Source of the DNA: an uncultured Chloroflexia bacterium
Lineage (GTDB): Bacteria > Chloroflexota > Dehalococcoidia > GIF9 > UBA5629
Direction: 5' to 3'
NCBI GenBank assembly: GCA_963827985.1
Contig: CAWHDI010000023.1
Coordinates: 26-64,025, forward strand
DNA: 64,000 nucleotides
A program made the translations under genes and the position numbers. Below the pieces are notes generated by a model. That model saw only the letters and a list, made by a program, of their open reading frames with translations. It ran no database searches and was not told the DNA's origin. Of this stretch, positions 28,841 through 62,723 are shown one piece after another (position 1 is the stretch's first letter; each line of letters begins with the position of its first letter).

Positions 28841-28841
28841 G

Positions 28842-42360: not shown

Positions 42361-42498
42361 AAATTCCACATGAAATATTAAACTCTAAACAAACCCTAGA
42401 TACTAAAGTACAAATTTTGAATTTGTTTAGAACCTAGTATTTAGTGTTTGGAGTTTTCTCCCTTTGTTTGGCATTTGGAATCTGGAGCTTGGAATTTT
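42361..42498. repeat. Heptamer-built palindromic element, copy A
   Basis: aaattcca...aactctaaacaaaccctagatactaaa / tttgaatttgtttagaacctagtatttagtgtttggagtttt...ggagcttggaattt; 42416-42459 matches 56352-56395 at 41/44. Confidence 0.8.
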
Positions 42499-43806
42499 AT
42501 CCTCCTGTGCACAATCTCCTGATAATGTCTTTGTATACTTCCGTTCCTTTGACCATGCTTTTCACTGATATCTTTTCATCGATGCCATGTACGGATTTCA
42601 TGTCTTCCATCGGCACCACTGCCGGGCAGAATCCGTACGACGCTATACCCTTTTCCCTGAAAAAACGTGAGTCGGTTGCGCCCAGCATAAGGAACGGCGC
42701 TGTGATGGCGCCCGGATAGTGCTTTTTTAATACCTTTTCGATTATGCGGTAGCTTTCAGATATTGGTTTCTGAAGAATTGCCTTCGCCCCTGCTAACAAA
42801 CTCTATCTCAATTTCATTGTCGGCAAGCTGTTCTTTGACGAAATTTACCCATTCGGTAATGTTCTGGCCGGGCAGCAGTCTGGTGTCCACCTCGGCCTCG
42901 GCGTATGAAGGAATAACGTTTACCCTGCTGCCGGAGTGCAGCGAATTAAGGCTGATAGTATTTTGCAGCAACGCCCTGATACGTGGAGTATCCATCAAGC
43001 CATTCTGCTCGATAATCTTGAACAGCGTACTTTCTTTGCTATCATGCAGCATATGGTTTGAGGTAATCCAATCCTTCCGCCAGCTTCTTAAAATATTCTG
43101 CTACTATCGGCGTCACCATGCGCGGGTTTTTATGGGCCAGCAGTCTGCTTACCGCTGCTGTCAGTCTCTCCAGCGGGTTCTGGTCGTGTGGAGTTGACCC
43201 ATGCCCGGGCATCCCCTTTCGTTTAAGGCGGAACCAGCAAGGTCCTTTCTCTCCGGGCGAAATCATGGCGACAAGACGGTCAGGTATCATGCCGCTCTGC
43301 ACATAACTGCCTTCATTGAGCAGCAGTCCCGCCTTGAAATCGTCCGGATGGTCGCGCAGAAGGAATTCCACACCGCAATCAGCCCCGGATTCTTCATCCG
43401 CTGTAGCCAGGAATATCAGGTCGCAATCCGGTTTGCTGCCGCAATTCTTAATGTCCAGCATTGCCAGCAGTTGCATGATACCCAGGCATTTGGTGTCCAG
43501 TGCGCCGCGGCCGCAGATATAGCCCTCGATTATCTCTCCACCGAACGGATCGAAGCTCCATTCCTCCCTGTTGGCAGGCACTACATCCATGTGATGAAGC
43601 ATGATGATTGGCTTCTTCTTGCCGGAACCCTTGATCTCGGCGCGTATGGAGGTCCTACCCGGCCTGTACTCATAGGTCTTGCATGCAATTCCTTCAGATT
43701 GGAATATCTTCGAAAAAAAAGCGGCTGCCAGGTGCTCGTTACCGGGCGGGTTTGATGTGTTCAACCTGATATACTGGCATAGAAGGTCTACTGCAACATC
43801 GTTCAT
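42497..43806 (-). CDS. M20/M25/M40 family metallo-hydrolase, frameshifted into three ORFs
   Basis: NPPGNE, HHMDVVP, GRGALDTK, ADEE, NEG, GHGS, NVIP, GATDSR, HGIDE. Confidence 0.9.
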
Positions 43807-43973
43807 ACTATCGTCCTTACAGAATTTTGATACTTCTAAAATTATACTCTTTTGGTATTGATTCAGTGGTTTTATTTGATCGTGTACTGGAACGGACGAT
43901 ATTGTAGAAAGTTATTTGAGCTCAACAGTTGATGCTATAATTATGTGTCATTTTGCTTGGAGGTATTATAAGT

Positions 43974-44936
43974 ATGAATCAATTCGCCGGCCAAGACGAG
44001 ATCAAGGTATTTTGCGGCAATGCTCATCCTTCACTGGCCAAAGAAGTATGCGCCTATCTGGGAATACCCCTTGGCAAAATGGAGGTTTTCGAATTCAGCA
44101 ACGAGAACATATTCGTGCGCATCATGGAAAATGTGCGCGAACGTGATGTTTTTATCATCCAGCCGATTTGCTCGCCGGTCCAGAGAAACCTGGTTGAGCT
44201 GCTGATCATACTCGATGCCTTTAAGCGCGCTTCTGCCGACCGGATAACGGCTGTACTTCCCTATTACGGCTATTCACGTACGGACAAGAAAGACCAGCCC
44301 CGCGTTCCCATTACGGCGCGGTTGGTGGCCGATCTGCTTACTACGGCGGGCGCCAACCGCATACTGACGGTGGACCTGCATGCGCCGCAGATACAGGGAT
44401 TCTTCAATATCCCGGTTGATGAGCTGACTGCGCTCTCTATTCTTGAGCGATTACTGGAAGAACAAGAATTTAAAGGATGTGGTGGTGGTGGCCACCGATA
44501 TCGGCATCAGCAAACGGGCGCGTGACCTGGCTGAGAAGCTCGATGCTCCGCTGGCGATTATCGAGAAGCGCCGCCTGGGCAACCAGGATACCACTGAAAC
44601 ACTGAATATCATCGGTGACGTGAAAGGCAAGCGGGCCATCACGGTCGACGATGAGATAGATACGGCCGGTTCACTGGTCAACGCTGTTGATGCGCTTCTC
44701 AAGAGCCGGCGCCAAAGAGGTTTACTCCTGCTGCACCCATCCCGTTTTCTCCGGCCCGGCCATTGAGCGCATCTCCAAGTCTGCCTGTAAAAGAAGTGGT
44801 GGTAGCGGATACCGTTCCGGTCAATGGGTCGAAGAAACTGGATAAAATTACCGTACTGCCGATGGCGGCGCTGCTGGGCGAAGCTATCCACCGCATCCAT
44901 ACGGGTATGTCGATCGGCGCCATGTTCGAAGATTAA
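43974..44936 (+). CDS. prs: Ribose-phosphate pyrophosphokinase (frameshifts)
   Basis: [37 protein letters not shown]. Confidence 0.9.
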
Positions 44937-44944
44937 GGTAGACT

Positions 44945-47569
44945 ATGCCAAGCTGGTTAGGGAAACTATTCGATTCCAACGAAAAAGAGATAAATCGCCT
45001 TCGGCCCCTGGTAAAGGAAATCAATGCCCTTGAGCCCGAGTTCCAGAAGCTCTCTGACGATGAACTGAAAGCCAAGACCGCCGAGTTCAAAGAGCGGCTG
45101 TCCAAAGGCGAGACCCTGGACGATCTTTTGCCGGAAGCTTTTGCTGCTGTCAGGGAGGCAGCCAGGCGCACTATAGGCATGCGCCATTTTGATGTCCAGT
45201 TGATGGGCGGCATCGTTCTTCATCAGGGCAAGATAGCCGAAATGAAGACCGGCGAAGGCAAAACGCTGGTCGCCACTCTTCCCCTGTATTTAAATTCACT
45301 TGAAGGCAAAGGCTGTCACCTGGTTACTGTCAATGATTATCTGGCACGCCGCGATGCTTACTGGATGAGCCCGGTTTATCATGCGCTGGGGGTATCAGTG
45401 GCCAGCATCTACCCGGTCCAGAGTTCCGATGGCCAGCTTACCTGCGCTGAAATATGATCCCGAATATGTGAATGAGCAAGATAAGCGATGGCCTCATTTC
45501 AAGCCGGTCGGCCGGCAGGAAGCGTACCTGGCTGATATCACCTACGGCACCAATAACGAGTTTGGTTTCGATTACCTCAGGGACAATATGGCGATAGACC
45601 TCTCGCACAAGGTCCAGAGGCCGCTAAACTATGCCATAGTCGACGAGGTCGACAATATCCTGATCGATGAAGCCCGTACCCCGCTTATTATCAGCGGACA
45701 GGGAGAGGACCCGGCTCAAAAGTACTATATCTTTGCGGATCTGGTTGCGAAGCTTACGCCCGAAGACTACAAGATAGAAGAAAGGGAACGCCAGGTTTAT
45801 CTGACCGATGAGGGCAGCGCTCGTATGGAGGAGATGCTCAAACGGGCAGGGTTGTTAAAGGCGCCTGACCTGTATGACGCAGTCAACTTACACCTGACCG
45901 AGTATATGGATAATGCCCTTAAGGCGCAGGTGCTGTTCCGCCGTGACAAAGACTATATGCTCAAGAATGGTGAGGTCATCATCGTCGATGAGTTCACCGG
46001 CCGGCTGATGTTCGGCCGCAGGTATTCTGAAGGTCTGCACCAGGCCATCGAGGCCAAAGAGCATGTCAAAATCCAGAAAGAGAGCGTTACACTGGCAACC
46101 ATCACGTTCCAGAACTATTTCAGGCTTTACAAAAAACTTGCAGGCATGACCGGGACGGCGGCTACTGAGGCGGAAGAGCTGTTCAAGATATACAAACTCG
46201 ACGTTGTGGTCGATCCCGACCAATAAACCCATGATCCGTGTCGATCAGAATGACATGATCTATAAGGACGAGGACTCCAAGTTCAAGGCAATTGCGGCTG
46301 AGATCGAGAAGCTGAACAAGGACGGCAAGCCTGTGCTCATCGGCACAGTCTCCATCGAGAAGTCCGAGTTATTGGGCGACCTTCTGAAACGCAGAGGCGT
46401 TCAGCACCAGGTGCTCAATGCCAAGTACCATGAAAGGGAAGCTGAAATTATCAAGAATGCGGGACGTGCCGGCGCAGTGACGGTTGCCACCAATATGGCG
46501 GGCCGCGGCGTTGATATAATTCTGGGCGGCAAAACGCCGGAACGCGATGAGTTTGCCGACGAAAAAGAGTATCAGAGAAAGTATGACGAGTGGAAGCAGG
46601 AGCACGAAAAGGTTGATAGCCATGGGCGGCCTGCAGGTGATCGGCACAGAGCGGCATGAAGCCAGGCGCATCGACAACCAGCTTCGTGGGCGTGCCGGCA
46701 GGCAGGGTGACCCGGGCAACTCGGTGTTCTTTGTCTCGTTGGAAGACGACATTGTCAAACGCTTCGGCGGTGACCGTGTCAAAGGCGTAATGGAATGGGC
46801 CGGCATGGATGAGACCACGCACATCGAACATCCTATGATCAGCAGGGCGATTGAAAACTCCCAGGTGAAGGTGGAGGCATTCCATTTCGATATCCGCAAA
46901 CATCTGGTTGACTACGACAACGTGGTCAACAAGCACAGGGAAGTGATCTATGGCGAGCGCGACAAGATACTGCAGGGCGCCGACCTGAAGGCCAACATAC
47001 TTGATATGGTGACGGACCATATTGAGGAGCAGGTCAAAGATTCATTTGGCCGTGAGTATGAAGGTCCTGACCTGAAAGGTCTGCTGGAGAGGACCCAGGA
47101 GATATTTGCCCAGCCGATTGATATTACGGAGAACGACGTGAAGGGGCTTAACGCCAAACAAGTGAGCGAGAAACTGATCGATTATGCCTGCGAGATATAT
47201 GACGGCAAAGAGCAGGAGATCGGCCCGGACGATATGAGACTGCTTGAGCGGCTGATAATGCTGCGTATCATAGACGACCAATGGAAAGAACACCTGACCG
47301 CCATGGACCATTTGAGGCAGAGGGTCGGGCTGGAGTCGGTCCGGCAGATCGATCCGCTGGTGGTCTATAAGAAGGAGGGCGGCGCTTACTTCGATACTCT
47401 AACCGCTGCAATCAAACATAGCATCGTTCACATGATTTTCAGGACCAACCTGGAGAAGCGTGAGGCAGCACCCAGACCGCCCACTGCGCCGGTCGGAGGC
47501 AGAGTCGGCCGCAATGATCCCTGCCCCTGCGGTTCAGGCAAGAAATACAAGCACTGCCACGGAAAATAG
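44945..47569 (+). CDS. secA: Preprotein translocase subunit SecA (frameshifts)
   Basis: [66 protein letters not shown]. Confidence 0.95.
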
Positions 47570-47577
47570 AAGATAAA

Positions 47578-47690
47578 AGCCTAACAACGACCAAATCCCA
47601 AACGGTTCCTCTTGGATTCTCACCTGATGAATCATTTCGGAGTTTTTAGATTCTAGTTTCTTTGCCTTAGAGTTTAGCACCTAGAATTAT
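47578..47690. repeat. Degenerate copy of the heptamer-palindrome family
   Basis: C/A-rich arm (cctaac..ccaaatcccaaac) followed by T/G-rich arm (ggagtttttagattctag..ttagagtttagc..tagaatt) between secA and polX. Confidence 0.4.
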
Positions 47691-47704
47691 ATATAATATA
47701 CCTG

Positions 47705-49432
47705 ATGAAAAACTCCGACATCGCCGTCGTTTTCGAGAATATCGCCGACCTGCTTGAATTGAAAGGCGAAAACAAATTTAAAATTCGCGCATATTCACGC
47801 GCCGCCCAGGTGATATCCCACCTTAGAAAAGAAATGGAGCTGATGCAGGAAGAGGGCGAGGACTTCCGTGATATACCAGGGATAGGTGAGGCCATTGCAA
47901 AGAAATCCGTGGAACTGATCACTACGGGTAAGCTAAAGTTTTATGATGACCTGAAGGCGGAGTTCCCCGAGGGCATCATCAATCTGCTGGACATCCCGGG
48001 CATAGGGCCCAAAACCGCCTATCGGCTCTCCACGGAGCTTGGCGTGGGGTCCGTCGAGCAGCTTGAGCAGGCCATCAGGGATGGCAGGGTGGCTTCCCTT
48101 GATCGCATGGGGGAAAAGACGGCGGACAATATCCTGCACGCCATCGAGGCTTTCAGACGCAAGGACAGGCGTATCCCGATCGGCGAGGCCCTCCCGGCAG
48201 TGGAAGAGGTGATCGCCCAGTTGGCAAAGGTCCCGGGAGTGCAGAATCTAACAGCGGCCGGCAGCCTGAGGCGCTTTAAAGAGACGGTTGGTGACATAGA
48301 TTTAATGGGCACGGCCGATGACCCTGAATCCGTTATCAAAGCATTCGTCAAATTACCGCAGGTCAGGCAGGTATTGTCGCAGGGCCCGACCAAGGCCAGC
48401 GTGATCCTTCCGAAAGGGCTGCAGGCTGATCTCAGGATGGTTGCGCATGATGAATTCGGGTCCCTGCTGCAGCATTTCACGGGAAGCAAAGAGCACAATG
48501 TGGCTTTGCGTACCAGGACGCAGGCACAGGGTTTGAGCTTGAGCGAATATGGTATTACCGACACGAAAACCGGCGAAGTGGAAAAATTCGCTGACGAGCA
48601 CTCCTTTTACCAACGCCTCGGCCTCCAGTATATCCCTCCCGAGATAAGAGAAGATATGGGTGAGATCGACCTTGCCGCCAAAAACGCCATTCCTGCTCTG
48701 GTGGAGGTGAAAGATATTAGGGGTGATCTCCATTCGCATACCCTCGCCAGCGATGGCTTGGATTCCATCGAGGATATGGCGAAGGCTGCCAGGGCTCTTG
48801 GCTACGAGTACCTGGCGATCACTGACCACTCCAGCGGACGCATGATCCCGGCGGATAAAAAACTGGATCGCGTCAAACGGCAGACAGCCGAGATAAAGCG
48901 GATCAATGGCTCATCGCTGGGTATATATTTGCTGGATGGTGTCGAGGTGGATATCAAGGCGGACGGCAGTCTTGACCTGCCGGATGAAGTGCTGGCCGGG
49001 CTGGACATCGTGATCGGGTCGGTACACTCATCTTTCCTGCAGGACAGGGCACAGATGACCCGGCGCATCATTGGCGCTATTGAGAACCCGAATATTGATG
49101 TTATCGCTCATCCCACGTGCCGCAAGATCGGCGAAAGGGAACCGGTCGATGTTGACCTGGAAGCTGTTTACCGGGCGGCAGCCAAATACGGCAAAGTGCT
49201 GGAGATCAATGCCATGCCTGAGCGGCTCGACCTGAACGATCTGCACGCTTACCGGGCACGCGAGCTCGGCGTTACCTTGTCCGTTGGGACTGACTCACAT
49301 GCGACTGTTCATCTTGCATTAATGAAATACGGCATCGGCGTTGCCCGCCGTGCGTGGTGTCAGTCAAAAGATATCCTGAACACGCGGACTCTGAAGGACA
49401 TATTGAAGTATTTGAAGAGGGACAAGTCCTGA
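47705..49432 (+). CDS. polX: DNA polymerase/3'-5' exonuclease PolX (PolX + PHP)
   Basis: GSLRRFKETVGDID, FTGSKEHN, DLHSHT, TDHS, HPT, TDSH. Confidence 0.95.
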   Translation: MKNSDIAVVFENIADLLELKGENKFKIRAYSRAAQVISHLRKEMELMQEEGEDFRDIPGIGEAIAKKSVELITTGKLKFYDDLKAEFPEGIINLLDIPGIGPKTAYRLSTELGVGSVEQLEQAIRDGRVASLDRMGEKTADNILHAIEAFRRKDRRIPIGEALPAVEEVIAQLAKVPGVQNLTAAGSLRRFKETVGDIDLMGTADDPESVIKAFVKLPQVRQVLSQGPTKASVILPKGLQADLRMVAHDEFGSLLQHFTGSKEHNVALRTRTQAQGLSLSEYGITDTKTGEVEKFADEHSFYQRLGLQYIPPEIREDMGEIDLAAKNAIPALVEVKDIRGDLHSHTLASDGLDSIEDMAKAARALGYEYLAITDHSSGRMIPADKKLDRVKRQTAEIKRINGSSLGIYLLDGVEVDIKADGSLDLPDEVLAGLDIVIGSVHSSFLQDRAQMTRRIIGAIENPNIDVIAHPTCRKIGEREPVDVDLEAVYRAAAKYGKVLEINAMPERLDLNDLHAYRARELGVTLSVGTDSHATVHLALMKYGIGVARRAWCQSKDILNTRTLKDILKYLKRDKS

Positions 49433-49642
49433 TGATCGACGCCAAACCCTACGGGGAGGTCCTTCAGATTGATCGACTACCTGGAGGAATTGGGCAGCAA
49501 GATCGAACGGCTATACAATGAAGGGAAAGATGTTGACCGTATAAGAGATGAAATCTTCGGCGCCGAAGGTCCAATAGCCGAATTTACCCAGCAGCAATTC
49601 TCATCAGTCAACATGGTGAAATCATTTCTGAGAAAAACATGA
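49432..49642 (+). pseudogene. Gene remnant, resembling N- and C-termini of an MBL-fold hydrolase with the middle missing
   Basis: MIDAKPYGEVLQI followed out of frame by LIDYLEELGSKIERLYNEG...FSSVNMVKSFLRKT*; start overlaps polX stop and stop overlaps next ATG. Confidence 0.45.
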
Positions 49643-50340
49643 CAAACGAAACATCACCTTTTAACGAAAGCAGCGAACAGGCGGCAGCCCTTGCGGGGGA
49701 CGCCCTTGCCATTCAACATCTCCGCAGTGACGTGAGGAGCGGGCGCAACTGGTATCTCGCTTTGTTGGAAGCTATCAGGATGTGGAGAAGCCCGGAGGAA
49801 TGTTATAAAGAAGAGCAGTTTAAGTACCTGCTGGGCGGCGAGGCTTTCGATTGGCTGCGTCTAGCGGAAAGGTTGTGCGATGAGATCAGGGAATACATTC
49901 CCGAGGCCGAGTTGGTCAACCTTCTCTTCTTCGACCGGCCTCCCATAGAGATTTCGGAAGCTGAGTTCAAGGAAGCGCTGGGGCCTGCCAAGTACCGCGC
50001 CTATCTTAATTACCTTTACGGCGTGCTTATCGAGCAGGCGTTGCTGCTGGCTGCTGTCTACGAGCTCAGGAAGGGCAGAATATCTCCCTTGAACCCGGAA
50101 GACGAGATCGAACAGGCATACCGGAAAATCTACCGCGCCGGGCAGGCCGAGCTATTGGATACTTTTGAGAAAGAGATGAAATATCCCCGCCGAGTATCGC
50201 TGACTCTGACCGAGATGAAGGAGTTCACCTACTGGCTGTTCCAATATCGCATCAAGATAAGCGAGAAACCCAGAGTTGCCAGCGACACGAAAAAGGCGCT
50301 GGCCCTGATGTACCGCAAGATGTCGCCGCGAAGTTCCTAG
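49639..50340 (+). CDS. Hypothetical protein
   Basis: 233-aa open frame with natural composition (WYLALLEAI, EAFDWLRLAERL, YLNYLYG, EFTYWLF, ASDTKK). Confidence 0.7.
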   Translation: MTNETSPFNESSEQAAALAGDALAIQHLRSDVRSGRNWYLALLEAIRMWRSPEECYKEEQFKYLLGGEAFDWLRLAERLCDEIREYIPEAELVNLLFFDRPPIEISEAEFKEALGPAKYRAYLNYLYGVLIEQALLLAAVYELRKGRISPLNPEDEIEQAYRKIYRAGQAELLDTFEKEMKYPRRVSLTLTEMKEFTYWLFQYRIKISEKPRVASDTKKALALMYRKMSPRSS

Positions 50341-53002
50341 CCAAGCTGTTCCAGCTCCGTCTTCATACGGGCAGCCTTACTTTCATATTCTAGGAGCCTG
50401 CTTTTTTCCTTCTCGATTACTGCGGCAGGAGCTTTTGAAGTGAACTGCGCATCTCCCAGGCGCTGAGTGAGCCGGCCGATTTCCCTGTCCATGATTTCTA
50501 TTTCTTTGGACAGCCGTGCTTTCTCGGCCTGGATATCAACCATGCCCGCCAGGGGTATTACCACGTCGGCATCTTTCAACACGGACACCATGGCTTTCTC
50601 GGCTTTCGATGGACGTTTGTCCCTGGGGAGAATAGTAAGCGGCCTGGTCTTGGCCAGTGTTTCGATGATGCCGGACCTTGCCTTGATATCCTGCAGCAGG
50701 TTGTCGGTGTAAACGAACGATTCCACCCATTTGCCGATGTCCACCTTGTATTCGGACCTGGCGTTGCGTATGGTACGCACGATATCCATCACGGCCCCCA
50801 TGACCTGCTCAGCCTCGGGATCGAGCAGTTTCTCATTGTACTGAGGGTAAGGTGCGACGATCAGTGCGGGAGAGGTCAGCGTTCCTTCAGGCAGGCGTTC
50901 CTTCAGGTTCTGCCACAGCTCTTCCGTAATAAACGGCATAAAGGGATGGAGCAGCCGTAGTGACATCTCAAGTACATAAGCCAGCACGGGCATGGGTGAA
51001 TTAGGTTTACCCAGCCTTTGCTTGCAGATCTCGATATACCAGTCGCAGAACTCGCCCCAGATAAAATCGTGTATCTCACGCTCAGCTTCGCCGAACTGGA
51101 AGTCCTTCATCAGGACATCCACTTCTTTGCACAGCCTGCTCAGTCTCGAGATGATCCAGCGGTCTTCTGTCTCCGTCAATTTCTTAACAGCCGGGTCAGA
51201 AAACGCTTGCTTGGTGAGGGGCTCTTTCTCCAGGGACGTCAGGACGAACCTGCTGGCATTCCAAAGCTTATTGGCGAAATTTCTGCCGGCTTCAAAACGG
51301 TGCTCTCCGATATTCATATCATTTCCGGGCGCGTTGCCGGTGGTGAGGCGCGAAGCGCATTGCATCGCAGCCGTACTGGTCAATGGTGACCAGGGGGTTG
51401 ACCACATTGCCCTTCATTTTGCTCATCTTCTCGCCCTTTTCGTCCCGGATCAGGCCGTGCAGATAGACCACACGGAAAGGTATATCACCGGTGTCTTCGA
51501 TGCCCATCATGATCATGCGTACTACCCAGAAGAAAAGAATGTCGTAGCTGGTTTCCATAACTGATGTAGGATAGAAATACTTGAGGTCCTCCGTTTGGTC
51601 GGGCCAGCCCAGCGTGGAATGCGGCCATAGTCCTGAACTGAACCATGTGTCCAGCACATCAGGGTCCTGTACCAGGTCGCTGCTGCCGCATTTGTCGCAT
51701 TTCGTGGGTGTTTCTATCGAAGCGATCATCTCGCCGCATTTCTGGCAGTACCAGACTGGTATGCGGTGTCCCCACCAGAGCTGGCGGCTGATGCACCAGT
51801 CGCGGATGTTTTCCATCCAGTTAAGATAGATCTTGGTGAACCTGTCGGGGATAATCTTTATCCTGCCGTCGTTGACAGCCTCGATGGCGGGCTGTGCCAG
51901 CGGCTGAATTTTCACAAACCATTGCTTGCTGACTTCAGGCTCGAGCACGGTGGAGCATCTGAAGCAGTGAGGAATGGCATGCGAGTAGGGCTCGATCTTA
52001 TCCATCAATCCCGCTTTCTCGAAGTCCTCGACGATCTTTTTGCGGGCTTCGAAGCGGTCCAGCCCGGCATACGGGCCGGCATTCTCGTTCATGGTGGCGT
52101 CGGGATTCAGCAGATGTATTACAGGCAGGTTGTGCCTCTGGGATATCTCGAAGTCGACCGGGTCATGGGCCGGAGTTACCTTGACCATGCCCGTGCCGAA
52201 GTTCCTTATCGATAGCATTGTCGGCAATGATAGGTATGGCCCGGTTGATAAAAGGCAATATCAACTTTCTTACCGACCAGGTGGGTGTATCTTTCGTCCT
52301 CGGGATTGACCGCCACGGCGGAGTCACCCAGGTAGGTTTCCGGGCGTGTGGTGGCCACTGTAACATAGCCGCTGCCGTCCTCGTACGGATATTTCATGTG
52401 CCACATGTTGCTGGTCAGGTCTTTGCTCTGCACTTCGAGGTCGGAGAGCGCGGTCCCGCAGCGCGGGCACCAGTTGATGATGCGCTCGCCCCGATAAATC
52501 AGCCCTTTCTTATACAGGCGGACAAAGGCTGTCTTGACCGCTTTAACCGGTCCTTCATCCAGGGTAAATTTTTCCCTGTGACCAGTCGCAGGATGCGCCC
52601 AGCCGCTCGTGCTGGTGTGTGATTGTGCTGCGGGATTTACTGGACCCACTGCCAGACACGCTCTTCGAATTTTTCCCTGCCTATCTGGTGGCGGTCGAGT
52701 CCCTCTTTGGCCAGCTCCCTTTCCACCACAACCTGGGTGGCGATGCCGGCGTGGTCGACGCCCGGCAGCCACAGCGAAGGGTCGCCCAGCATCCTGTGCC
52801 AGCGCGTCATGATATCTTCGAGAGTTGCCGTCAGGGCATGGCCTACATGCAGTTCGCCCGTTACGTTGGGAGGAGGCATGATTATGGTGAACGGCTTCTT
52901 CTTCGGGTCGATCTTCGGCTTGAAGTAGCCGCCATCCATCCAGAACTTATAGCGTTCCTGTTCGACCAGCTTCGGTTCATAGGCTTTAGGTATATCAGTC
53001 AT
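50337..53002 (-). CDS. valS: Valine--tRNA ligase (frameshifts)
   Basis: [53 protein letters not shown]-terminal coiled coil. Confidence 0.95.
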
Positions 53003-53019
53003 GTGTTACCCCGGTTTTA

Positions 53020-53664: not shown

Positions 53665-53671
53665 AATGATA

Positions 53672-53866: not shown

Positions 53867-53878
53867 CCGATAGACCAG

Positions 53879-54100
53879 CTAGATATTGATTTCGATAGAT
53901 TCTTTTACCACAGGAACATCGGGATGGGAACGCTGATATAATTCCCGGTTTGACTCGATGACCAGTTGAAGGGCTTCTTTCAAGTTTTCCCTCACCTCTT
54001 TTAAAGTTCGTCCCTGCGTATTTACGCCTGGCACTTCTTCGATGTGCCCGATATACCACTTGCCTTGTTTTTCAATAACACTGGTGAATTTGCGTTTCAT
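53879..54100 (-). CDS. hicB: HicB family antitoxin (short, no DNA-binding domain)
   Basis: WYIGHIEEVPGVNTQGRTLKEVRENLKEALQLV. Confidence 0.9.
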   Translation of the reverse strand: MKRKFTSVIEKQGKWYIGHIEEVPGVNTQGRTLKEVRENLKEALQLVIESNRELYQRSHPDVPVVKESIEINI

Positions 54101-54209
54101 AGCTGTCAATCCCATTTTATTGTTGGTTTATGCCGCGGCTTCCCCTCTAACATAGATTTTAGGTTATCTCATATCTTATGCCGTCGATTAACAACATGCG
54201 ACTTAGTCT

Positions 54210-55413: not shown

Positions 55414-55425
55414 CTGAGTGCCTCC

Positions 55426-56193
55426 TCAGCCCCGGTTTAATTCCCATATAAGGCGAAGACCGACCAGGGTCAGGTCGGCGTTTACAATATTGATTACGTT
55501 GCTTGCGTCCACGATCAGGGAGGCAAGCCCTCCGGCAGCCACCACCTTGGCCTTCTCATCAAGTTCGGCCTGGATACGGCCTACGATGCCTTCGATCAGG
55601 CCGATGTATCCGAATACGATACCTGACTGCATGGCAGCGATTGTATTCCTGCCTATGGCTTTCTTGGGCAGTGTAAGCTCGATCCTGGGCAGCACGGCTG
55701 TCCTTGTGAATAAGGCTTCTGTGGAGATAATGATACCCGGTGCGATGGCCCCGCCGATATAACTGCCGTCCTTGGAGACGACGTCCAGCGTGGTGGCGGT
55801 GCCCATGTCAATCACGATGACGGGCCCGCCGTACAGCTTGTGTGCGGCCACGGCATTGACTATCCGGTCCGGCCCAACCTCACGCGGGTTATCCATATCT
55901 ATGCGTATACCGGTCTTCACGCCGGCCTCCACCACCAGAGGGGTCTTCTTCAGGTAGCGCTTGCTGACTTCCTCAAAGATGATCAGCAGGGGCGGAACAA
56001 CGCTGCAGATGACAACGTCTTTTATCTTGCCGGCTGTAACGCCCTGTCTTTCCATGAGCGACAGCATCGTATTTGCATATTCGTCGGATGTCCGGTGGAT
56101 ATTGGTGGAAACGCGCCAGGTGGTCTTGATCCGCTCTCCCTCGAAAACCCCGAAGGTGACGTTGGTATTGCCTATATCAATGGCTAATAACAT
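55426..56193 (-). CDS. coaX: Type III pantothenate kinase
   Basis: IDIGNTN, SVVP, VGPDR, DMGTATT, GGAIAPG. Confidence 0.95.
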   Translation of the reverse strand: MLLAIDIGNTNVTFGVFEGERIKTTWRVSTNIHRTSDEYANTMLSLMERQGVTAGKIKDVVICSVVPPLLIIFEEVSKRYLKKTPLVVEAGVKTGIRIDMDNPREVGPDRIVNAVAAHKLYGGPVIVIDMGTATTLDVVSKDGSYIGGAIAPGIIISTEALFTRTAVLPRIELTLPKKAIGRNTIAAMQSGIVFGYIGLIEGIVGRIQAELDEKAKVVAAGGLASLIVDASNVINIVNADLTLVGLRLIWELNRG

Positions 56194-56222
56194 GGTATTT
56201 CATTATTGCACAAATATGCGGG

Positions 56223-56427
56223 AAAATTCCAAGCTCAAAACACAGCACAGGCTCCAGGCTACAAATATCAAGCGGATGTTACACTCTAAATCCCAAGCTC
56301 TAAACTCTAAAAAAACCCAAAATACTAAATTATAAACTTTGGATTTAGAGCTTTGAATTTGTTTAGAACTTAGTATTTACTATTTGGAGTTTTCTTCCCT
56401 TTGCTTGGAATTTGGTTATTGGGCTTT
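56223..56427. repeat. Heptamer-built palindromic element, copy B
   Basis: aaattccaagctc...ctaaatcccaagctctaaactctaa...tactaaa / tttggatttagagctttgaatttgtttagaacttagtattt...cttggaattt. Confidence 0.85.
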
Positions 56428-56428
56428 A

Positions 56429-56773
56429 TTACATGAACACGTTAGTGAAGGTTATTGCCAGCATAACGATTACGATAATCAGGGAGACGGCACAGCCGGC
56501 AAAGAAACCCCATCCAAAAGCCGACCACAACCTCTGCATCTTAGTGAACTGTTCTAAGTTCTCCCATTTCTTGTTCCTCCACGCCCATTCGTTGCCCCTT
56601 GCTCCGAGGATAAAGGCCATCACTATGCTTACCACGGGGACCAGGCCCAATAGGGCGATATAGGTTCTATTCCCCAGGCCCCAGATCCAGCCCATCCAGA
56701 AAGCGCCCCAGTTCCATCTCCTGGCTGCCGCGGGTAGTTCAATTTCTGCTGCTGAATTGTTGGCTATGCTCAT
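56429..56773 (-). CDS. Small membrane protein with WNWGAF motif
   Basis: RWNWGAFWMGWIWGLGN...GARGNEWAWRNKKW...FTKMQRLW. Confidence 0.75.
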   Translation of the reverse strand: MSIANNSAAEIELPAAARRWNWGAFWMGWIWGLGNRTYIALLGLVPVVSIVMAFILGARGNEWAWRNKKWENLEQFTKMQRLWSAFGWGFFAGCAVSLIIVIVMLAITFTNVFM

Positions 56774-56805
56774 ATCGGTCCCCCTTTTATTATTCGTAAT
56801 GCCGT

Positions 56806-58398
56806 CTACCATTTTTCCCACTGCCATGAATCTACCGGGTCAAGCGGATAAATCGGCCTGGAGATATTATTGTATTTAATCGAAAAGACATCGATATTGG
56901 TGGTGCCCGGGGTTATCACGTTGAGTGTCTTGCGGTTATATTTCAGGAACCATACTCGGAATGGGAAGAGATTCTTGACTACGACAATATTAGCTTTCCA
57001 CATATCCAATCCAACGCTGGTGAAGAAGGTCGGGTACATCGTAGGGTCGGGAAACTCCGTTAATATCAGGTGCACCCCGTTATTCTTGAGCACAACCGCG
57101 CGGATCTCCGGCTTGTTATAGCCGCGGCAATTACCCTTGAAAATAACTTGCCCCGTAAACTGATAAGGCTGGCCATATAATTTGTCCACTTTGCCGCCGA
57201 CCGACAGTGTAACCGTTTGATTTAACGGCACGTCCCAAAGCTGCGTCACGGCCTGGCTGTCCGCGACTGGAATATATGACACAAGGTCGGGCCCCTCTTC
57301 CACGAGCGCCTTTAGGATCCGCGTGCTTTCACCCGGGGCGCCCGCGCCAACAGCATCCGACAGGTCACAGAACACAGTCGTCCCCGTTAACCTTTCAAAC
57401 CAGGCGTCACGGGCGGCCTTGACCGCCTCAGACGGCGAATACAGTTTCTGCGTCATTTTGAAGTCCCGGACGGCCCAGTCACGGTCTGCAATCTCATCTG
57501 CCAGCTTATCCGCAAGGGCTTTGTTGGCATCTGTTACAGCCACCGTGCTCCAGCCAAGTCCTGGTTCATCCAGCCAGATGTGCACCATGAAGTTTGATAC
57601 ACAGAGGACACCTGGCATTTTTTCCATTTCCTTCATGCGGTTGAAAATGCTGTCCATCGGCGGGAGAAAATCAATATCCTGGCCTCCACCCCTCAAAAGC
57701 TTCATTTTATTGACGGTCATGACCGGGTGGATCTCACCCTGCACTGTCTTTATCAGTATTTTACCGGCAGTATAGCCCGTGGCGAACAGGTCGCGGTGGG
57801 GATTCGTCTTGAAGCCCACTATAAATGTGGCCAGTTTGGCCTTTCTCTCGGTCATATTGGCGTGCAGGTCGTAGGAAGTGGCTATTGGCAGGTCTGGGCC
57901 GAATTCATCCCTGATGGCCTGCAGCAGGTCCCCTTCAGGATCGTAAAGGCCGTCCACTCCCATGGCGCCGTGCAGTGAAAGATAGATACCGTCCAGCTTT
58001 TTAATACCGCGCAGCCCCTCGAGGATTTCTTTTTTGAAGCGAGCATAGACCTCTTTTTCAACGGGAGCGCCGGCGTCCGCTCTGGCGCTCAAAATCGGAA
58101 CGACGGTTATCTTCCCTGCCCCGAAATCTTTGACGGCAGATAGAAATCCGCCCACCATGGCCTTCTCTTTTGTAGCGGAAGAGATCATATCATCGCCGTA
58201 ATGAAGGACAAAATCAATCAGGGTGGTCTTAATGGGTAAAGCAACGTTTGTTTCCTGCATTAATTCGGCGACAGCAATGGTCTTTTCGGTCAGTGGGGAC
58301 GAAGTGGCGGCGTTGCCGGTGGTATCCGTGGGCTGGCTGCAGCTGGCCGGCAGCAGAAAAATAAATATCAAAATCGATCCGATAATCTTCCTGCACAT
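56806..58398 (-). CDS. M81 family (MlrC-like) metallopeptidase, lipoprotein
   Basis: MQETN, LSLHGAM, DPEGDLL, DLHAN, TNPHRD, DAVGAGAPG; lipobox LPASC; ggagg RBS. Confidence 0.85.
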   Translation of the reverse strand: MCRKIIGSILIFIFLLPASCSQPTDTTGNAATSSPLTEKTIAVAELMQETNVALPIKTTLIDFVLHYGDDMISSATKEKAMVGGFLSAVKDFGAGKITVVPILSARADAGAPVEKEVYARFKKEILEGLRGIKKLDGIYLSLHGAMGVDGLYDPEGDLLQAIRDEFGPDLPIATSYDLHANMTERKAKLATFIVGFKTNPHRDLFATGYTAGKILIKTVQGEIHPVMTVNKMKLLRGGGQDIDFLPPMDSIFNRMKEMEKMPGVLCVSNFMVHIWLDEPGLGWSTVAVTDANKALADKLADEIADRDWAVRDFKMTQKLYSPSEAVKAARDAWFERLTGTTVFCDLSDAVGAGAPGESTRILKALVEEGPDLVSYIPVADSQAVTQLWDVPLNQTVTLSVGGKVDKLYGQPYQFTGQVIFKGNCRGYNKPEIRAVVLKNNGVHLILTEFPDPTMYPTFFTSVGLDMWKANIVVVKNLFPFRVWFLKYNRKTLNVITPGTTNIDVFSIKYNNISRPIYPLDPVDSWQWEKW

Positions 58399-58699
58399 TT
58401 GCCGACCTCCTTCAATCTGATATCAAGAAAAGGCTGCGGATGCTACCCGTTTGTTTGTCATTGTCTTTTCCGGTGCCAGCTTCTATGGGGAATGCCGATC
58501 GATTCCCTGTCAATCAGCTGATGACACGATGGAGATGACGCTATACAAAAAGTAACATTCTTGTCTATCTTGTCACATGACCGGCGAAAAAGTCAAGCAA
58601 ATATGCTGTTTCACACTGCGCTTGGGAACGTCTGTGTAATGCTGAATTTATCTTCGTAGAGCACGAGTCTTCAGCCCCGCTCAAATGCAAAACAAACGA

Positions 58700-58823
58700 A
58701 ATTCTCTGAAATCCAAACGCAAAGAAACTCTAAATCCTGAATACTAAACAAGTTCAAAACTCTAAGCTCGAACATTTGAATTTTGAGTTTGTTTAGAGTG
58801 TAGAGTTTAGTATTTAGGGTTTT
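58700..58823. repeat. Heptamer-built palindromic element, copy C (overlaps nnr stop)
   Basis: aaactctaaatcctgaatactaaacaagttcaaaactctaag / tttgaattttgagtttgtttagagtgtagagtttagtatttagggtttt. Confidence 0.85.
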
Positions 58824-60373
58824 CCCTTTAATTCTTTTATTACTCTCGGCAGTGCCGGCAGCAGGTCGCCTGCCAGCATCCCGGTATCTCCCATCTCATC
58901 TTTTACCAGTTCGCCCGCTCCCGCATGCAGGTATACTCCCAGCGCGGCCGCATCGAACAGCGGGATGCCCTGTGCTGCCAGCCCCGCTATCGCCCCGGCC
59001 AGCACATCTCCCGTCCCCGCCGTAGCCAGCCCGGGATTGGCAGCCCCGCTTACCCTGGTCTTTCCACCCGGCTCCGCTATAACTGTAAATGCCCCTTTCA
59101 AAACAACTATTTTATGCCAGTCGGCGGCGGCTTTCCTGGCGATTTCCAGCCGGTTGGCCTGTATTTCTTCGATCGATATGCCCAGCAGCCGCGCCATCTC
59201 CCCTGCGTGTGGTGTGACAATCGTCCCCGCAGGCAGTTTTTTCCACCACTGGTTGGCCCCGGATAGTACGTTAAGCGCGTCGGCGTCCAGCACCAGCATG
59301 GGCGGTTTTTCCGGCAGGTGGAAGAGTATGTTCCTTACGAATTCTTTGGTGTGTTCATGCTGTCCCAGCCCGCATCCCATCAGCATCACCCTGTAATACG
59401 GCAGGATGCTCAATATGGCGGCGGCCGCCTTTTCTGAGAGCGTCCCCTTTTCTGATTCCGGCAACGGCGCATAGGTCACCTCGGTCAGCTTGGAGGCCAG
59501 GATGGGCTGCAGGCTTTTGGCGGTGGACAGCGTTACCACCCCGGCGCCTACCCTGGCGGCGCCCATGCATGCCAGGAACGCCGCACCGATGTAGTTCTCC
59601 GAGCCCACGACTGCCAGCAATCTGCCAAACGTCCCTTTGTTGGCGCTGGCCGGCCGTGGGGGCAGTGCGGATTTTGCCCAGCTTTCCGTTATCAGTTCGG
59701 TCTGGATATCGTGGCTCAGTGCGTCCGGTATCCCTATATCTGCAATGATCACTTTGCCGGCCCTTTCCGCACCCGGGAAATTGTAAAGGCCGGGTTTTGG
59801 CAATCCGAGCGTCACCGTCAGGTTGGCCTGGGGGCAGTTATGGTCGATTTCGCCGGTGTCGGCGTTCAATCCCGTGGGTATGTCTACGGCCACGATCACC
59901 AGGTTCGGCCTCTTCAGCTTCTCCTGGTTCAGCCTGTTTAGTACTTCCTTGAACTCACCTTCCAGCGGCCGCGCCCTGCCCGTGCCAAGTATGCCGTCGA
60001 TAACGACGCCCGCCGTGGACAGCAGGCCCTTGATCTTGGTGTATTTTGCGTCTTTGGACAATGGAATGACCGGCACATCACGGTCCTTTAGCTTTTTCAG
60101 GTTCTTGTCATCAGAGGTGCGATCAGCAAGGAGGTAAACGCTTACGTCTGCGCCCCACTCGTGCAGGTAGCGGGCGGCCACCAGCGCGTCGCCTCCGTTA
60201 TTGCCGGGGCCGGCCAAAGCAAGTACATGCTTGCCCGCAATGAAGTCAATTAATTCCCTGGTCTCTTCGGCCACTGCCCTGCCTGCGTTCTCCATCAGGA
60301 ACTCGGTGCTGATGCCCGATGCCGCGGCTTTGCCGTCGATCTCTCTCATCTGCTGGGCGGTCACAATCTTCAT
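58814..60373 (-). CDS. nnr: Bifunctional NAD(P)H-hydrate epimerase/dehydratase
   Basis: LMENAG, GPGNNGGD, DIPTG, NKGTFG, DADALN, TPHAGE, TAGTGDVLAG. Confidence 0.95.
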   Translation of the reverse strand: MKIVTAQQMREIDGKAAASGISTEFLMENAGRAVAEETRELIDFIAGKHVLALAGPGNNGGDALVAARYLHEWGADVSVYLLADRTSDDKNLKKLKDRDVPVIPLSKDAKYTKIKGLLSTAGVVIDGILGTGRARPLEGEFKEVLNRLNQEKLKRPNLVIVAVDIPTGLNADTGEIDHNCPQANLTVTLGLPKPGLYNFPGAERAGKVIIADIGIPDALSHDIQTELITESWAKSALPPRPASANKGTFGRLLAVVGSENYIGAAFLACMGAARVGAGVVTLSTAKSLQPILASKLTEVTYAPLPESEKGTLSEKAAAAILSILPYYRVMLMGCGLGQHEHTKEFVRNILFHLPEKPPMLVLDADALNVLSGANQWWKKLPAGTIVTPHAGEMARLLGISIEEIQANRLEIARKAAADWHKIVVLKGAFTVIAEPGGKTRVSGAANPGLATAGTGDVLAGAIAGLAAQGIPLFDAAALGVYLHAGAGELVKDEMGDTGMLAGDLLPALPRVIKELKGKP

Positions 60374-60873
60374 GATCGTCCTCCTTTACTTCCTTCCACC
60401 TGGCTGGAGTCGAATTCATGCAATTTATCCGTCATGGCCTTCCAGTGCGTGCCGCGCCAGTAGACGCGGCGGCAGGAAGGGCAAATCATATACTGATCCT
60501 GTATCTCGTAGACCCTCTCCGGCACCAGTCCTTCCGCCTCGCTTTTATCCAGTTCCTTCAGATCGGCATTGCATTCCAGACAGCGTGTAAACGGCCTGGT
60601 TTTGTCAGAGAGTCCCAATTCATTGATCACCGTGTACATCTGGGACTCGGAGTTATCGCCCGATACCAGGATGGCCTTGACCCTGCCGGTGGTTATGGCG
60701 CGCCTCTTCATAAACTCCGTGTCCTTGGTGATGATGATCCTGTCCTGCGCCAGTGCCATCTTGACCATTTTGCCGTCATCCAACTCATCGAAAAACAGCG
60801 TATCGAACCCCATCATCCTCAGCCATTTGGCCAGTTTGCCAACGTTAGCGTCAACTATGAACTTCGGTTCCAC
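60370..60873 (-). CDS. Mut7-C RNase domain protein
   Basis: FIVDANVGKLAKWLRMMGFD, RIIITKD, RCLECN, CPSCRRVYWRGTH. Confidence 0.9.
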   Translation of the reverse strand: MEPKFIVDANVGKLAKWLRMMGFDTLFFDELDDGKMVKMALAQDRIIITKDTEFMKRRAITTGRVKAILVSGDNSESQMYTVINELGLSDKTRPFTRCLECNADLKELDKSEAEGLVPERVYEIQDQYMICPSCRRVYWRGTHWKAMTDKLHEFDSSQVEGSKGGRS

Positions 60874-60897
60874 TTCCCTTAGAATTTTATGCTTTGC

Positions 60898-61566
60898 TCA
60901 GTCAGCCCGCAAGGGGTTGAAATCGGTGTTATAGTCGTAGTGGTCCTTTTTCTCAGTCCGCTTGAGATAGCCGACCAGCCAGTAGGTAAAGGGCGTGGCA
61001 ACTATTTCGTAAGAGGACTTGAATATCCAGTGCCACAGCATCATCCCCAGCAGGATATCCCGGGGCAGTACGCCCCAGAAGCCTATGGACAGCACGATAA
61101 CGGTATCTACAGCCTGGCCGGCGATCGTTGAGCCGACAGTACGCGTCCACAGCCATTTGCCTTTGGTGAGGATCTTCATCCTGGCCAGGATGTAGGAGTT
61201 AATGAACTCTCCCGCCAGGTAGGCTGCGAAAGAGGCGACCAGGAAGCGCGGCGTATTGCCCAGTATCCTGTCATAAGCTGACTGCGCATCGAACACGGGG
61301 GCCGCCGGCAGGATGCCCACCAGCCATATGGCCGCCACCAGCAGCAGGTTGCAGAAGAATCCCAGCCAGATGACGCGCCGTGCCTGGGCATAACCGTAAA
61401 CCTCGGTGAGGACGTCGCCGAATATATAGCTCATGGGGAAAATAACGATGGCGGCGGGCAGCGTGATACTGCCCACGGCGATCTGTTTGACGATCAGGAT
61501 ATTGGCCGCCAGCAGGCAGGTCACAAAAAGTGCCGCTATCGCGACGAATCTATAAGAGTAGTTCAA
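60898..61566 (-). CDS. yhhQ: Queuosine precursor transporter (VUT/YhhQ family)
   Basis: ANILIVK, FPMSYIFGDVLTEVYG, ASFAAYLAG, WTRTVGSTIAGQAVDT. Confidence 0.9.
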   Translation of the reverse strand: MNYSYRFVAIAALFVTCLLAANILIVKQIAVGSITLPAAIVIFPMSYIFGDVLTEVYGYAQARRVIWLGFFCNLLLVAAIWLVGILPAAPVFDAQSAYDRILGNTPRFLVASFAAYLAGEFINSYILARMKILTKGKWLWTRTVGSTIAGQAVDTVIVLSIGFWGVLPRDILLGMMLWHWIFKSSYEIVATPFTYWLVGYLKRTEKKDHYDYNTDFNPLRAD

Positions 61567-61602
61567 GTTACTGTTCCTTTAACAAAAGTTGCGGTTTATA
61601 AA

Positions 61603-61767
61603 TAAATCCTAAGCCCTAAATACTAAATCCTAAACAAACCCAAATGTCAAAATCCGAAGCTCAAAATTCTCTGTGGCTTTGGATTTTGAGTTTGTTTAGA
61701 GCTTAGAGTTTAGGATTTAGAATTTTCTCATTTTGTTTGGAATTTGGTTTTTGGAGCTTGGAATTTC
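61603..61767. repeat. Heptamer-built palindromic element, copy D
   Basis: aaatcctaagccctaaatactaaatcctaaacaaacccaaatgtcaaaatcc / ggattttgagtttgtttagagcttagagtttaggatttagaattt...ggagcttggaattt. Confidence 0.9.
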
Positions 61768-61791
61768 ATCCGAGACGTGAGGGTAATCCTA

Positions 61792-62517
61792 CTACCAGAT
61801 GAACGGCGCCAGCCTGTATTTCACCGTCTGCGCATATTCGCGGTAGCCCGTCAATTCCTTTTGCAGCGTCCTGTCTTCGAGCGCCGTGCGGGTGATGATC
61901 ACGATAGTAAGAATGCCGCTCAGCACCAGTCCCCACCAGGACCCCAATATAAACGGGTAAAGCAGCACGGACAATATCAGTCCCGCATAACCCGGATGCC
62001 TTACAAACCTGTACGGGCCGTCCTTGCACACATACTGGCTGCTATCTTCCTGGATACGGACGGTCCACTCGAAGAACTTGTTAACGGCCATCGCCCAGGT
62101 CGCTATAACCAGCGCCGGGATAAACAGGACTATCCCCACAATGCTCAGCCAGATGGGCATGGACGACCAGTGAAAGCGCACGGCATCGAACCCGATGACG
62201 ATGATGTTGGCTACGCTCAGCAGGGGGTAAAGGGCGATCCATATCTTGTCGAATGTCTTGGTGCCTTCCTTGACCACGCCGGCGCGGGCGTTAAGCACCT
62301 GCGGATTAACCTTGGCCAGTACAGCAGTGGTGATGATCTGTGAAAGGCACGCCAGGACGAAATAGACCCAGCCGTTCACCCATGCGATCGTACCCGCCGC
62401 CAAAAACATTATAGCGAAGCTGATCAGTATAAAGACCCATTGTGCGGCAATTGCCCTTTTAGCTGCCTTGTTCAACGCTCCCATATCTAATTCTCCTTGT
62501 GTACCAGCGGTACGCAT
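61792..62517 (-). CDS. Isoprenylcysteine carboxyl methyltransferase (ICMT/PEMT) family membrane protein
   Basis: WAMAVNKFF, VRIQ, GPYRFVRHPGY, RTALEDRTL, GYREY, RLAPFIW; start may be 62484. Confidence 0.9.
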   Translation of the reverse strand: MRTAGTQGELDMGALNKAAKRAIAAQWVFILISFAIMFLAAGTIAWVNGWVYFVLACLSQIITTAVLAKVNPQVLNARAGVVKEGTKTFDKIWIALYPLLSVANIIVIGFDAVRFHWSSMPIWLSIVGIVLFIPALVIATWAMAVNKFFEWTVRIQEDSSQYVCKDGPYRFVRHPGYAGLILSVLLYPFILGSWWGLVLSGILTIVIITRTALEDRTLQKELTGYREYAQTVKYRLAPFIW

Positions 62518-62523
62518 CGGAAA

Positions 62524-62606
62524 GAAACTCCAAGCCCTAAATACTAAATCCTAAACAAACCCAAATGTCAAAATTCAAAGCACAAGCCGTTTGGCCTTTG
62601 GATTTT
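62524..62606. repeat. Heptamer-built palindromic element, copy E (right arm missing)
   Basis: 62532-62574 identical (43/43) to 61611-61653; similarity stops after ctttggatttt at 62606. Confidence 0.85.
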
Positions 62607-62723
62607 AACAAAGAGGCGGCGTCTTCGTCCCGCCGACAGTCCATTCGAATAATAAACAGGGTCCCGGTCGTCATGATGAGGTTGTATAGACCGCTTGATA
62701 TAGTGTTTATAAGGGACTATCCG

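Follow-up and report, generated by a model that had tools for sequence, protein, structure and literature searches.

Gene-less palindromes of 7-nucleotide units in a Dehalococcoidia contig, best read as derivatives of an intervening-sequence-like element with a four-helix-bundle gene

A 64,000-nucleotide (nt) stretch of DNA from an uncultured Chloroflexia bacterium of the class Dehalococcoidia (assembly GCA_963827985.1, contig CAWHDI010000023.1), here called the window, was found to contain four complete copies (A to D) and one truncated copy (E) of a single family of AT-rich, intergenic palindromes built from 7-nt units. Each complete copy consists of a left, C/A-rich arm and a right, T/G-rich arm. 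The copies in the window are best interpreted as derivatives, now without a gene, of an intervening-sequence-like element that in its full form holds one small gene of the Avd/S23p type. On balance we favor the view that all five sites belong, as gene-less (miniature) members, to a widespread, intervening-sequence-like selfish family, with the arms as putative protein-binding arrays. Coordinates given without a locus number follow the numbering of the window.

RESULTS

Five copies of one element family

The arms consist of 7-nt units arranged around a junction, CTAAACAAA in the C/A arm and TTTGTTTAG in the T/G arm that follows it. In the window copies, CTAAAnn units lead to CTAAACAAA and a short loop, after which come inner units of the TTTTGRA type, TTTGTTTAG, and outer TTTAGRR units. 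A profile made from the window arms (nhmmer) recovered nine arms with E values of 3e-16 to 2e-7, two in each of copies A to D and one in copy E. The same nine were matched at E ≤ 1.6e-6 by a second profile of 110 arms, 102 of them from elements in other genomes; neither profile detected a copy in window positions 1-42000. The junction TTTGTTTAG occurred 7 times in the window (0.4 expected), and the 23-nt pattern TTTGTTTAGNNNNTAGNNTTTAG, with at most one mismatch, 6 times (0.00 expected). In the following list, E values are given for the individual arms, and fold z-scores refer to 100 mononucleotide shuffles.

Copy A, 42361-42498: complete, gene-less; C/A arm about 42361-42413, T/G arm 42414-42462, extra T/G units 42463-42498 ending in GGAGCTTGGAATTT; E 1.3e-15 and 1.8e-7 (window-arm profile), 1e-8 and 1.6e-6 (110-arm profile); predicted fold -32.1 kcal/mol, z -2.7
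Copy B, 56223-56427: complete; core arms about 56272-56404, outer pair AAATTCCAAGC / GCTTGGAATTT; E 3.4e-16 and 3.8e-13 (window-arm profile), 8e-11 and 1e-10 (110-arm profile); predicted fold -46.6 kcal/mol, z -2.8
Copy C, 58700-58835: complete, the shortest, without outer extension; E 9e-12 and 1.4e-11 (window-arm profile); predicted fold -34.2 kcal/mol, z -4.4
Copy D, 61595-61773: complete, the best preserved; C/A arm 61595-61666, loop, T/G arm 61675-61730, extra units to 61773; E 7e-14 and 6e-12 (110-arm profile); predicted fold -52.4 kcal/mol, z -6.0
Copy E, 62518-62606: truncated, with left arm, loop, and only the first bases of the right arm; E 9.7e-14 (window-arm profile), 5.7e-12 (110-arm profile)

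These are the five main sites of an earlier note on this DNA, which had described a dispersed family of heptamer palindromes in intergenic gaps; the profile matches and the gene context bear that description out. Direct reading and repeat analysis likewise confirmed the 7-nt units and the placement of the C/A arm before the T/G arm, and the copies are indeed AT-rich, with 30-38% G+C where the window as a whole has 51.5%. The earlier note had also called an outer pair, AAATTCCA.../...TGGAATTT, frequent; it is present in copies A and B, on the right side only in copy D, and absent from copy C. Extra T/G units ending in GCTTGGAATTT were seen on copies A, B, and D. A further, degenerate copy had been placed at 47578-47690, between secA and polX. 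This site scored weakly with both profiles (E = 0.28 and 0.33), and its predicted fold did not exceed that of shuffles on either strand (z -0.4 for plus, +0.4 for minus); it is therefore not supported as a copy.

A repeat search of the window gave copy D 48-nt arms that are 75% complementary. Copy E ends at 62606, where copy D runs on into the right arm with GAGTTTGTTTAG, and is for this reason regarded as truncated. An open reading frame (ORF) at 62797-63975, about 190 nt beyond copy E, has weak similarity to an integrase core (rve, 22.2 bits, Pfam cut-off 32.6) and to IS481 (29.9 bits, model cut-off 224), both below threshold. Copy E was possibly cut by an insertion sequence, and the window stops before the far end of that sequence. 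The left arms of copies D (61600-61664) and E (62521-62585) are 89% identical over 65 nt and form direct repeats around a PEMT/ICMT methyltransferase gene. As they are far closer to each other than to those of copies A, B, and C, a recent local duplication or copy event is suggested. The self-repeat search sorted the copies into families D6, D7, D10, D12, and D14, of which D10 is the D/E pair.

A four-helix-bundle gene lies between the arms of full-length relatives

Loci containing related elements were fetched from other genomes (numbered with the prefix L). A Pfam scan of 109 arm-adjacent ORFs identified the 23S rRNA intervening sequence protein family, PF05635, three times, and tblastn raised the number of four-helix-bundle ORFs to six, in five fetched loci (L019, L046, L048 with two, L074, and L113). 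All six sit exactly between the arms in one common layout, and all score 62-75 bits on TIGR02436 (cut-off 24). The full-length element reads as 4-5 outer CTAAAnn units, CTAAACAAA, the start codon, a TIGR02436/PF05635 gene of about 120 codons with the S23p/Avd fold, inner TTTTGRA units, TTTGTTTAG, and 4-5 outer TTTAGRR units. The C/A arm contains the start codon, six bases past CTAAACAAA, and the stop codon abuts the inner T/G units. The window copies have no gene, only the short loop, between their arms; the left arm of copy D retains CAAATG where the gene-bearing relatives place their start codon.

The protein model (pLDDT 90) is a four-helix bundle in which the first nine residues, encoded by the arm heptamers, are disordered. 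Its best fold matches (Foldseek) were BT_0352 (2rld), Xcc0516 (2gsc), and the Avd protein of diversity-generating retroelements (DGR; 4dwl and 8ub7). The closest solved structure, 2rld, has five chains, and a Xanthomonas four-helix-bundle protein is described as a homopentamer ring (PMC4990558). The same source states that structures of S23p/TIGR02436 proteins have been solved and that their role is not known. The predicted isoelectric points of the four-helix-bundle proteins are 8.4-9.6.

Heptamer arrays are recovered when the search starts from the protein

In the reciprocal direction, a tblastn search of plasmids with the four-helix-bundle protein matched 23 records. The sample taken from them comprised 14 plasmid regions with 15 genes annotated "four helix bundle protein", and a strict array was defined as at least 18/21 matches at a shift of 7. 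By this measure, the 7.5 kb of sequence no more than 250 nt away from the genes contained 21 strict 7-nt arrays, and the other 79.2 kb contained 12. At least one strict array was located beside 11 of the 15 genes; of the remaining four, three showed degenerate arrays by eye and one was unclear. The arrays are mostly inverted around the gene, and the genes sit between co-oriented genes inside larger operons. With six genes between arms and 11 of 15 plasmid genes beside arrays, the link to TIGR02436-type genes, which the earlier note had raised, is real. The units differ by lineage:

Nostoc and Aulosira: AATTCAA/TTTTGAA
Planktothrix: CCCCAAT and AATCGTA
Nostoc punctiforme: GTCGGAG and GGGTGTG
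Euhalothece: ACTGGTC
Chlorohelix: GGATGAA
Treponema: CCGCTCT

Several of the plasmid sites were in defense or transport operons (L125, L126, L131, L132, and L134-L136), next to DISARM drmD/MmeI, helicase/methylase, DUF1156/Swt1-HEPN, cas2/cas1, and RND adaptor/permease genes. A figure legend in a CRISPR survey lists "23S rRNA IVP" as newly associated with CRISPR adaptation modules (PMC10910872), and the siting of the gene in defense operons may explain that association of the family. In the Dolichospermum plasmid region L132, AATTACG arrays also occur within coding sequences annotated as helicase, hypothetical protein, and DNA methyltransferase; the arrays of this region are as follows:

3179-3245, AATTACG array
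5747-5804, AATTACG array
6258-6303, AATTACG array
6948-7011, AATTACG array
7718-7781, AATTACG array
7878-7919, AATTACG array

The family and its architecture are spread across phyla

Species-representative genomes (596 Gb) were scanned with TTTGTTTAGNNNNTAGNNTTTAG as an exact 17-base pattern, and at least 122 loci were matched. The 122 matches listed were tallied from their record titles:

Patescibacteria, 28 loci
Planctomycetota, 23 loci
Bacteroidota, 21 loci
Omnitrophota, 12 loci
Pseudomonadota, 11 loci
Chloroflexota, 8 loci
Deltaproteobacteria-type, 4 loci
Elusimicrobia, 2 loci
Nitrospirota, 2 loci
Archaea, 2 loci
Bdellovibrio, 1 locus
other groups, 8 loci

An arm profile match was present in 111 of the 122; since the 17-base pattern is expected by chance tens of times in 596 Gb, the 11 loci without one may be chance matches. 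The inverted partner arms are independent of the search pattern. After exclusion of three duplicate loci, the C/A arm preceded the T/G arm in 55 adjacent arm pairs of the listed loci, 51 of them separated by ≤150 nt; the reverse order did not occur, and in 5 further pairs both arms had the same orientation. A further 63 arms were called solo, some of them merely with a partner too diverged for the threshold.

Seven other loci, in records labeled Elusimicrobia, Omnitrophota, Patescibacteria, Planctomycetia, Dehalococcoidia, and Deltaproteobacteria, contain elements that align with copy D over 116-149 nt (72-76% identity). Housekeeping proteins shared in the aligned loci are only 30-56% identical in amino acid sequence. 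The right arm of copy C is 89% identical over 53 nt to that of a Patescibacteria element (L017). Element G+C was 0.27 ± 0.05 regardless of host, with flanks ranging from 0.30 to 0.62 (n = 36 hairpins). Both the element family and its architecture are spread across phyla. A blastn search with copy D gave no match in the plasmid and phage collections, an outcome of little weight because the low-complexity filter may have masked the query. In three Planctomycetota loci, ORFs with HNH_3 and AP2 domains, a homing-endonuclease-like make-up, adjoin arms (L037 2056-2670, L056 1393-1986, and L070 1069-1653), and in two of the three the ORF begins 0-18 nt past the T/G arm.

Arm sequence is conserved and pairing is not

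Terminal inverted arms are able to form a stem, and the predicted folds of hairpins A to D (-32 to -52 kcal/mol) exceed those of shuffles (z -2.7 to -6.0). The element might accordingly be a structured RNA kept for its hairpin, as mRNA protection or as an RNase III site, with the four-helix-bundle gene as incidental cargo. Co-transcription with the host operon is very likely (see below), and RNase III cuts the rRNA intervening sequences that bear the same gene family (PMC4990558). The comparison of arms speaks against it. An element's own partner was the best-matching arm in only 1 of 54 elements, the mean score being 22.0 within and 24.6 between elements, and arm column identity was 0.571 within elements versus 0.586 when permuted. 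At the variable positions of the outer units, two per unit, the 24 elements with both junctions intact gave an identity of 0.281 within and 0.440 between elements, with 0 of 2,000 permutations as low. The constant TTTAG positions gave 0.850 within and 0.851 between elements. A covariation check had been proposed in the earlier note, and it yielded none: from an alignment of 42 hairpins (the window copies and 38 elements from other genomes), RNAalifold retained no pairs beyond the 8-bp junction. The covariation term was 0.09, and 0/8 pairs were compensatory.

The arms each track the family consensus, and it is their sequence that is conserved and not their pairing; if anything, the variable positions are kept dissimilar between an element's own two arms. 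Despite folds better than shuffles, these tests argue against selection for pairing. No Rfam family reached the gathering threshold for the elements in a search of the window and the elements (best match MIR9563, a plant miRNA hairpin, 45.9 versus 90 bits), nor did any bacterial family emerge at E-value thresholds, and the arms called solo, although they include some whose partner was missed, also fit poorly with a conserved hairpin. We consider a structured RNA unlikely.

Polymerase slippage could also have made the heptamer arrays in place, with no dedicated factor and no transfer, and with the layout and the gene as by-products. Many bacteria have an excess of heptamers among their long simple repeats, and an origin of these heptamers by slippage has been suggested (Mrazek 2007, cited in PMC4679880 and PMC4692102). 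Unit number does differ among copies, and other lineages have other units. Slippage leaves unexplained a fixed, non-repetitive junction, a fixed order of inner and outer units, an arm order that held in 55 pairs to 0, whole elements 72-76% identical across phyla, and a specific gene at a fixed position with its start codon within the arm, and we judge it quite improbable.

Copies occupy short spacers between co-directional genes

All complete copies in the window occupy spacers between minus-strand genes:

Copy A fills the spacer between genes for an HhH-GPD glycosylase (41678-42340, minus strand) and a fragmented M20 peptidase (42497-43806, minus strand)
Copy B is between coaX (55426-56193, minus strand) and a 132-aa ORF of no family (56429-56827, minus strand)
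Copy C is between genes for an MlrC/M81 peptidase (56806-58398, minus strand) and NAD(P)HX repair (58814-60373, minus strand)
Copy D is between genes for a Vut_1 transporter (60898-61566, minus strand) and a PEMT/ICMT methyltransferase (61792-62517, minus strand)
Copy E adjoins the PEMT/ICMT start codon

The 36 hairpins from loci with long flanks were placed between co-directional genes in 29 cases, between convergent genes in 2, between divergent genes in 1, and at contig edges in 4. Co-directional genes thus flanked 29 of the 32 hairpins with both neighbors called, and none was inside an ORF. The median gaps to the adjacent ORFs were 5.5 and 9.5 nt, and Patescibacteria examples were found between rpsM and rpsK and between rpsF and ssb. 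Co-directional neighbors and short gaps make co-transcription with the host operon very likely.

The element might instead regulate the next gene in cis, either as a promoter or as a standby site for ribosomes. The T/G arm contains AGGA/GGAG-like motifs and ends about 10 nt before start codons, in keeping with the 9.5-nt median to the next ORF, and many T/G arms run straight into the start codon. Solo arms, however, showed no orientation bias (19 toward the start of the downstream gene versus 17 toward a gene end). Across positions 55500-63000, sigma-70-like sites numbered 9 versus 7.1 expected, only 2 of them in elements, and terminator-like sites were not enriched. The units of other lineages, moreover, are without Shine-Dalgarno-like content. 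A regulatory role of this kind therefore has little probability.

Other features of the window

The only Rfam matches at the gathering threshold in the window were two tRNA genes:

25759-25832, minus strand, tRNA gene
32600-32673, minus strand, tRNA gene

Positions 16-2079 form a nested, near-perfect palindrome with arms 91-100% complementary and a center near 1070, and its ORFs contain no Pfam family. It looks like a fold-back artifact of long-read assembly or a real inverted duplication. Several genes are split over adjacent frames:

42497-43806, M20 peptidase, three ORFs
43953-44766, prs, overlapping ORFs
44945-47569, secA, at least three ORFs
50337-52772, valS, three ORFs

Splitting of essential genes over frames suggests frequent assembly indel errors, or pseudogenes. 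A tandem duplication of about 1.8 kb is present at 26016-27823 and 28837-30653 (2.82-kb spacing, 73-91% identity); the former copy includes a 560-aa ORF that has an AAT acyltransferase domain, and the latter is broken into small ORFs.

DISCUSSION

A proposed gene-less derivative of a selfish element, with arms as putative binding arrays

Under the reading that we favor, the element would be selfish and mobile, traveling passively within the transcripts of operons, and the window copies would rely on protein supplied from elsewhere. The heptamer arrays would act as sequence-specific binding platforms, most likely for a ring-forming four-helix-bundle protein, with one unit per protein subunit, and would not be helices kept for pairing. 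Binding of an array by a ring is proposed from the number of outer units (of 102 arms, 48 have 4 and 28 have 5, 76/102 together) and from the five chains in 2rld. The imperfect stem may in addition be cut by RNase III, as in 23S rRNA intervening sequences (PMC4990558).

Several points weigh against this reading. The window encodes no four-helix-bundle gene (tblastn, none below E = 0.2); the earlier note had said as much, and the absence fits its description of the copies as non-autonomous, with supply of the protein in trans assumed. The start-codon remnant is at its fixed position in only 13 of 43 hairpins with both junctions, too few to orient most of them, and unit usage did not separate the arms cleanly. 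The parent element, in the fetched gene-bearing loci, encodes no recognizable transposase or recombinase, and 52 flank pairs revealed no target-site duplication at the element ends. Binding of the protein to the arrays is our own proposition, and the agreement of unit number with a pentamer is loose, since outer-unit counts span 1-6 per arm and arrays in other lineages reach 13 units. The protein family is the sole tie to rRNA intervening sequences; a search of the 122 listed loci for conserved rRNA motifs gave nothing beyond one chance match with 2 mismatches. Finally, the loci were chosen by an exact 17-base pattern, so that similarity near the junction is partly built in, and the taxon labels are titles of metagenome-assembled genome records, for which contamination is possible.

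A broader proposal is conceivable but doubtful. Inverted intergenic heptamer arrays, including the cross-phylum family described here, the STRR type, and Xanthomonas GGGAATC, could be the ends of one unrecognized selfish class, whose sole gene would encode an Avd-like ring protein reading one heptamer per subunit. The 23S intervening sequences would then be copies that landed in rRNA, and the gene-less hairpins would be non-autonomous progeny.

The results tie together two sets of observations that have both been without an agreed role, namely, the heptamer arrays of cyanobacteria, Xanthomonas, and Beggiatoaceae and the S23p/TIGR02436 proteins. The gene was between 7-nt arrays in 6/6 cases found by pattern and in at least 11/15 found by protein. 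Phyla as far apart as Patescibacteria and Planctomycetota share one sequence type of element at >70% identity. The hypothesis of an array bound by a pentameric protein bears on the repeats, on the protein family, and on the origin of rRNA intervening sequences. For annotation, such AT-rich blocks in operon spacers may be mistaken for terminators, CRISPR-like arrays, or assembly noise.

Comparison with known systems

The earlier note had likened the palindromes to repetitive extragenic palindromic (REP) sequences and integron attC sites. The REP unit is a palindrome of 20-40 nt with a conserved head tetranucleotide, and such units flank the Y1 transposase gene. It is scarcely credible that the copies are such recombination or transposition sites (integron attC, or REP and bacterial interspersed mosaic elements [BIME] moved by a Y1 transposase of the RAYT type). 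With attC the elements share the form of imperfect palindromes of about 60-140 nt between co-oriented genes; at 56-62.6 kb of the window, imperfect palindromes divide small groups of co-oriented genes, and copies D and E flank one gene as direct repeats. However, a scan of 70 window ORFs found no integron integrase or Y1 transposase. In contrast to attC sites, the elements conserve sequence and show no structural covariation. Their arms, as heptamer arrays of 50-90 nt, differ from 20- to 40-nt REP units, and the neighbors include core housekeeping genes, among them ribosomal protein genes in Patescibacteria. The earlier statement that these are not CRISPR arrays stands, as the 7-nt units are contiguous, without spacers, and in inverted arms.

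Like miniature inverted-repeat transposable elements (MITE) and REP/BIME sequences, the window copies are short, AT-rich, multicopy, intergenic, and gene-less, with inverted terminal arms. Target-site duplications of the kind that MITE have were not visible in the 52 flank pairs, and the parent encodes only the four-helix-bundle protein, whereas a MITE parent encodes a transposase. The DGR protein Avd is a pentamer. It has the same fold as the protein of the full-length relatives, at a sequence identity of about 13%; PF05635 is named in one DGR review, and Avd is described as nucleic acid associated and as working with the reverse transcriptase (PMC10053308). The other parts of a DGR, namely, a reverse transcriptase, a template repeat, and a variable repeat, were not observed next to any of the elements examined.

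The cyanobacterial STRR sequences are intergenic arrays of heptamer repeats. Intergenic heptamer arrays are also described for Xanthomonas (GGGAATC, with 70-75 convergent pairs per genome) and Nostoc [GGGGA(C/T)T] (PMC4692102), and direct TAACTGA arrays are described for marine Beggiatoaceae, cyanobacteria, and Bacteroidetes (PMC4679880). Their function is not agreed upon, and horizontal spread is suspected (PMC4692102 and PMC4679880). Term searches of the text of these two papers found no mention of a four-helix-bundle gene, and no literature link between TIGR02436 genes and heptamer arrays was found in a search of titles, opening lines of abstracts, and passages in openly available papers. 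Like the Xanthomonas, Nostoc, and STRR arrays, the window copies are tandem 7-nt units in intergenic DNA, often in inverted pairs; they differ in their units (TTTAGRR and TTTTGRA), conserved junction, two-zone arm, and occurrence in many phyla.

Among the close parallels are 23S rRNA intervening sequences with an S23p/PF05635 ORF, as described for Coxiella and Leptospira (PMC4990558). The window copies differ from these in being gene-less and in lying between protein genes rather than in an rRNA helix. Their full-length relatives share with the intervening sequences the gene family and the position of the gene in the loop between terminal inverted repeats. Both are about 0.45-0.5 kb long, have a G+C content below that of the host and no known mechanism of mobility, and are regarded as selfish.

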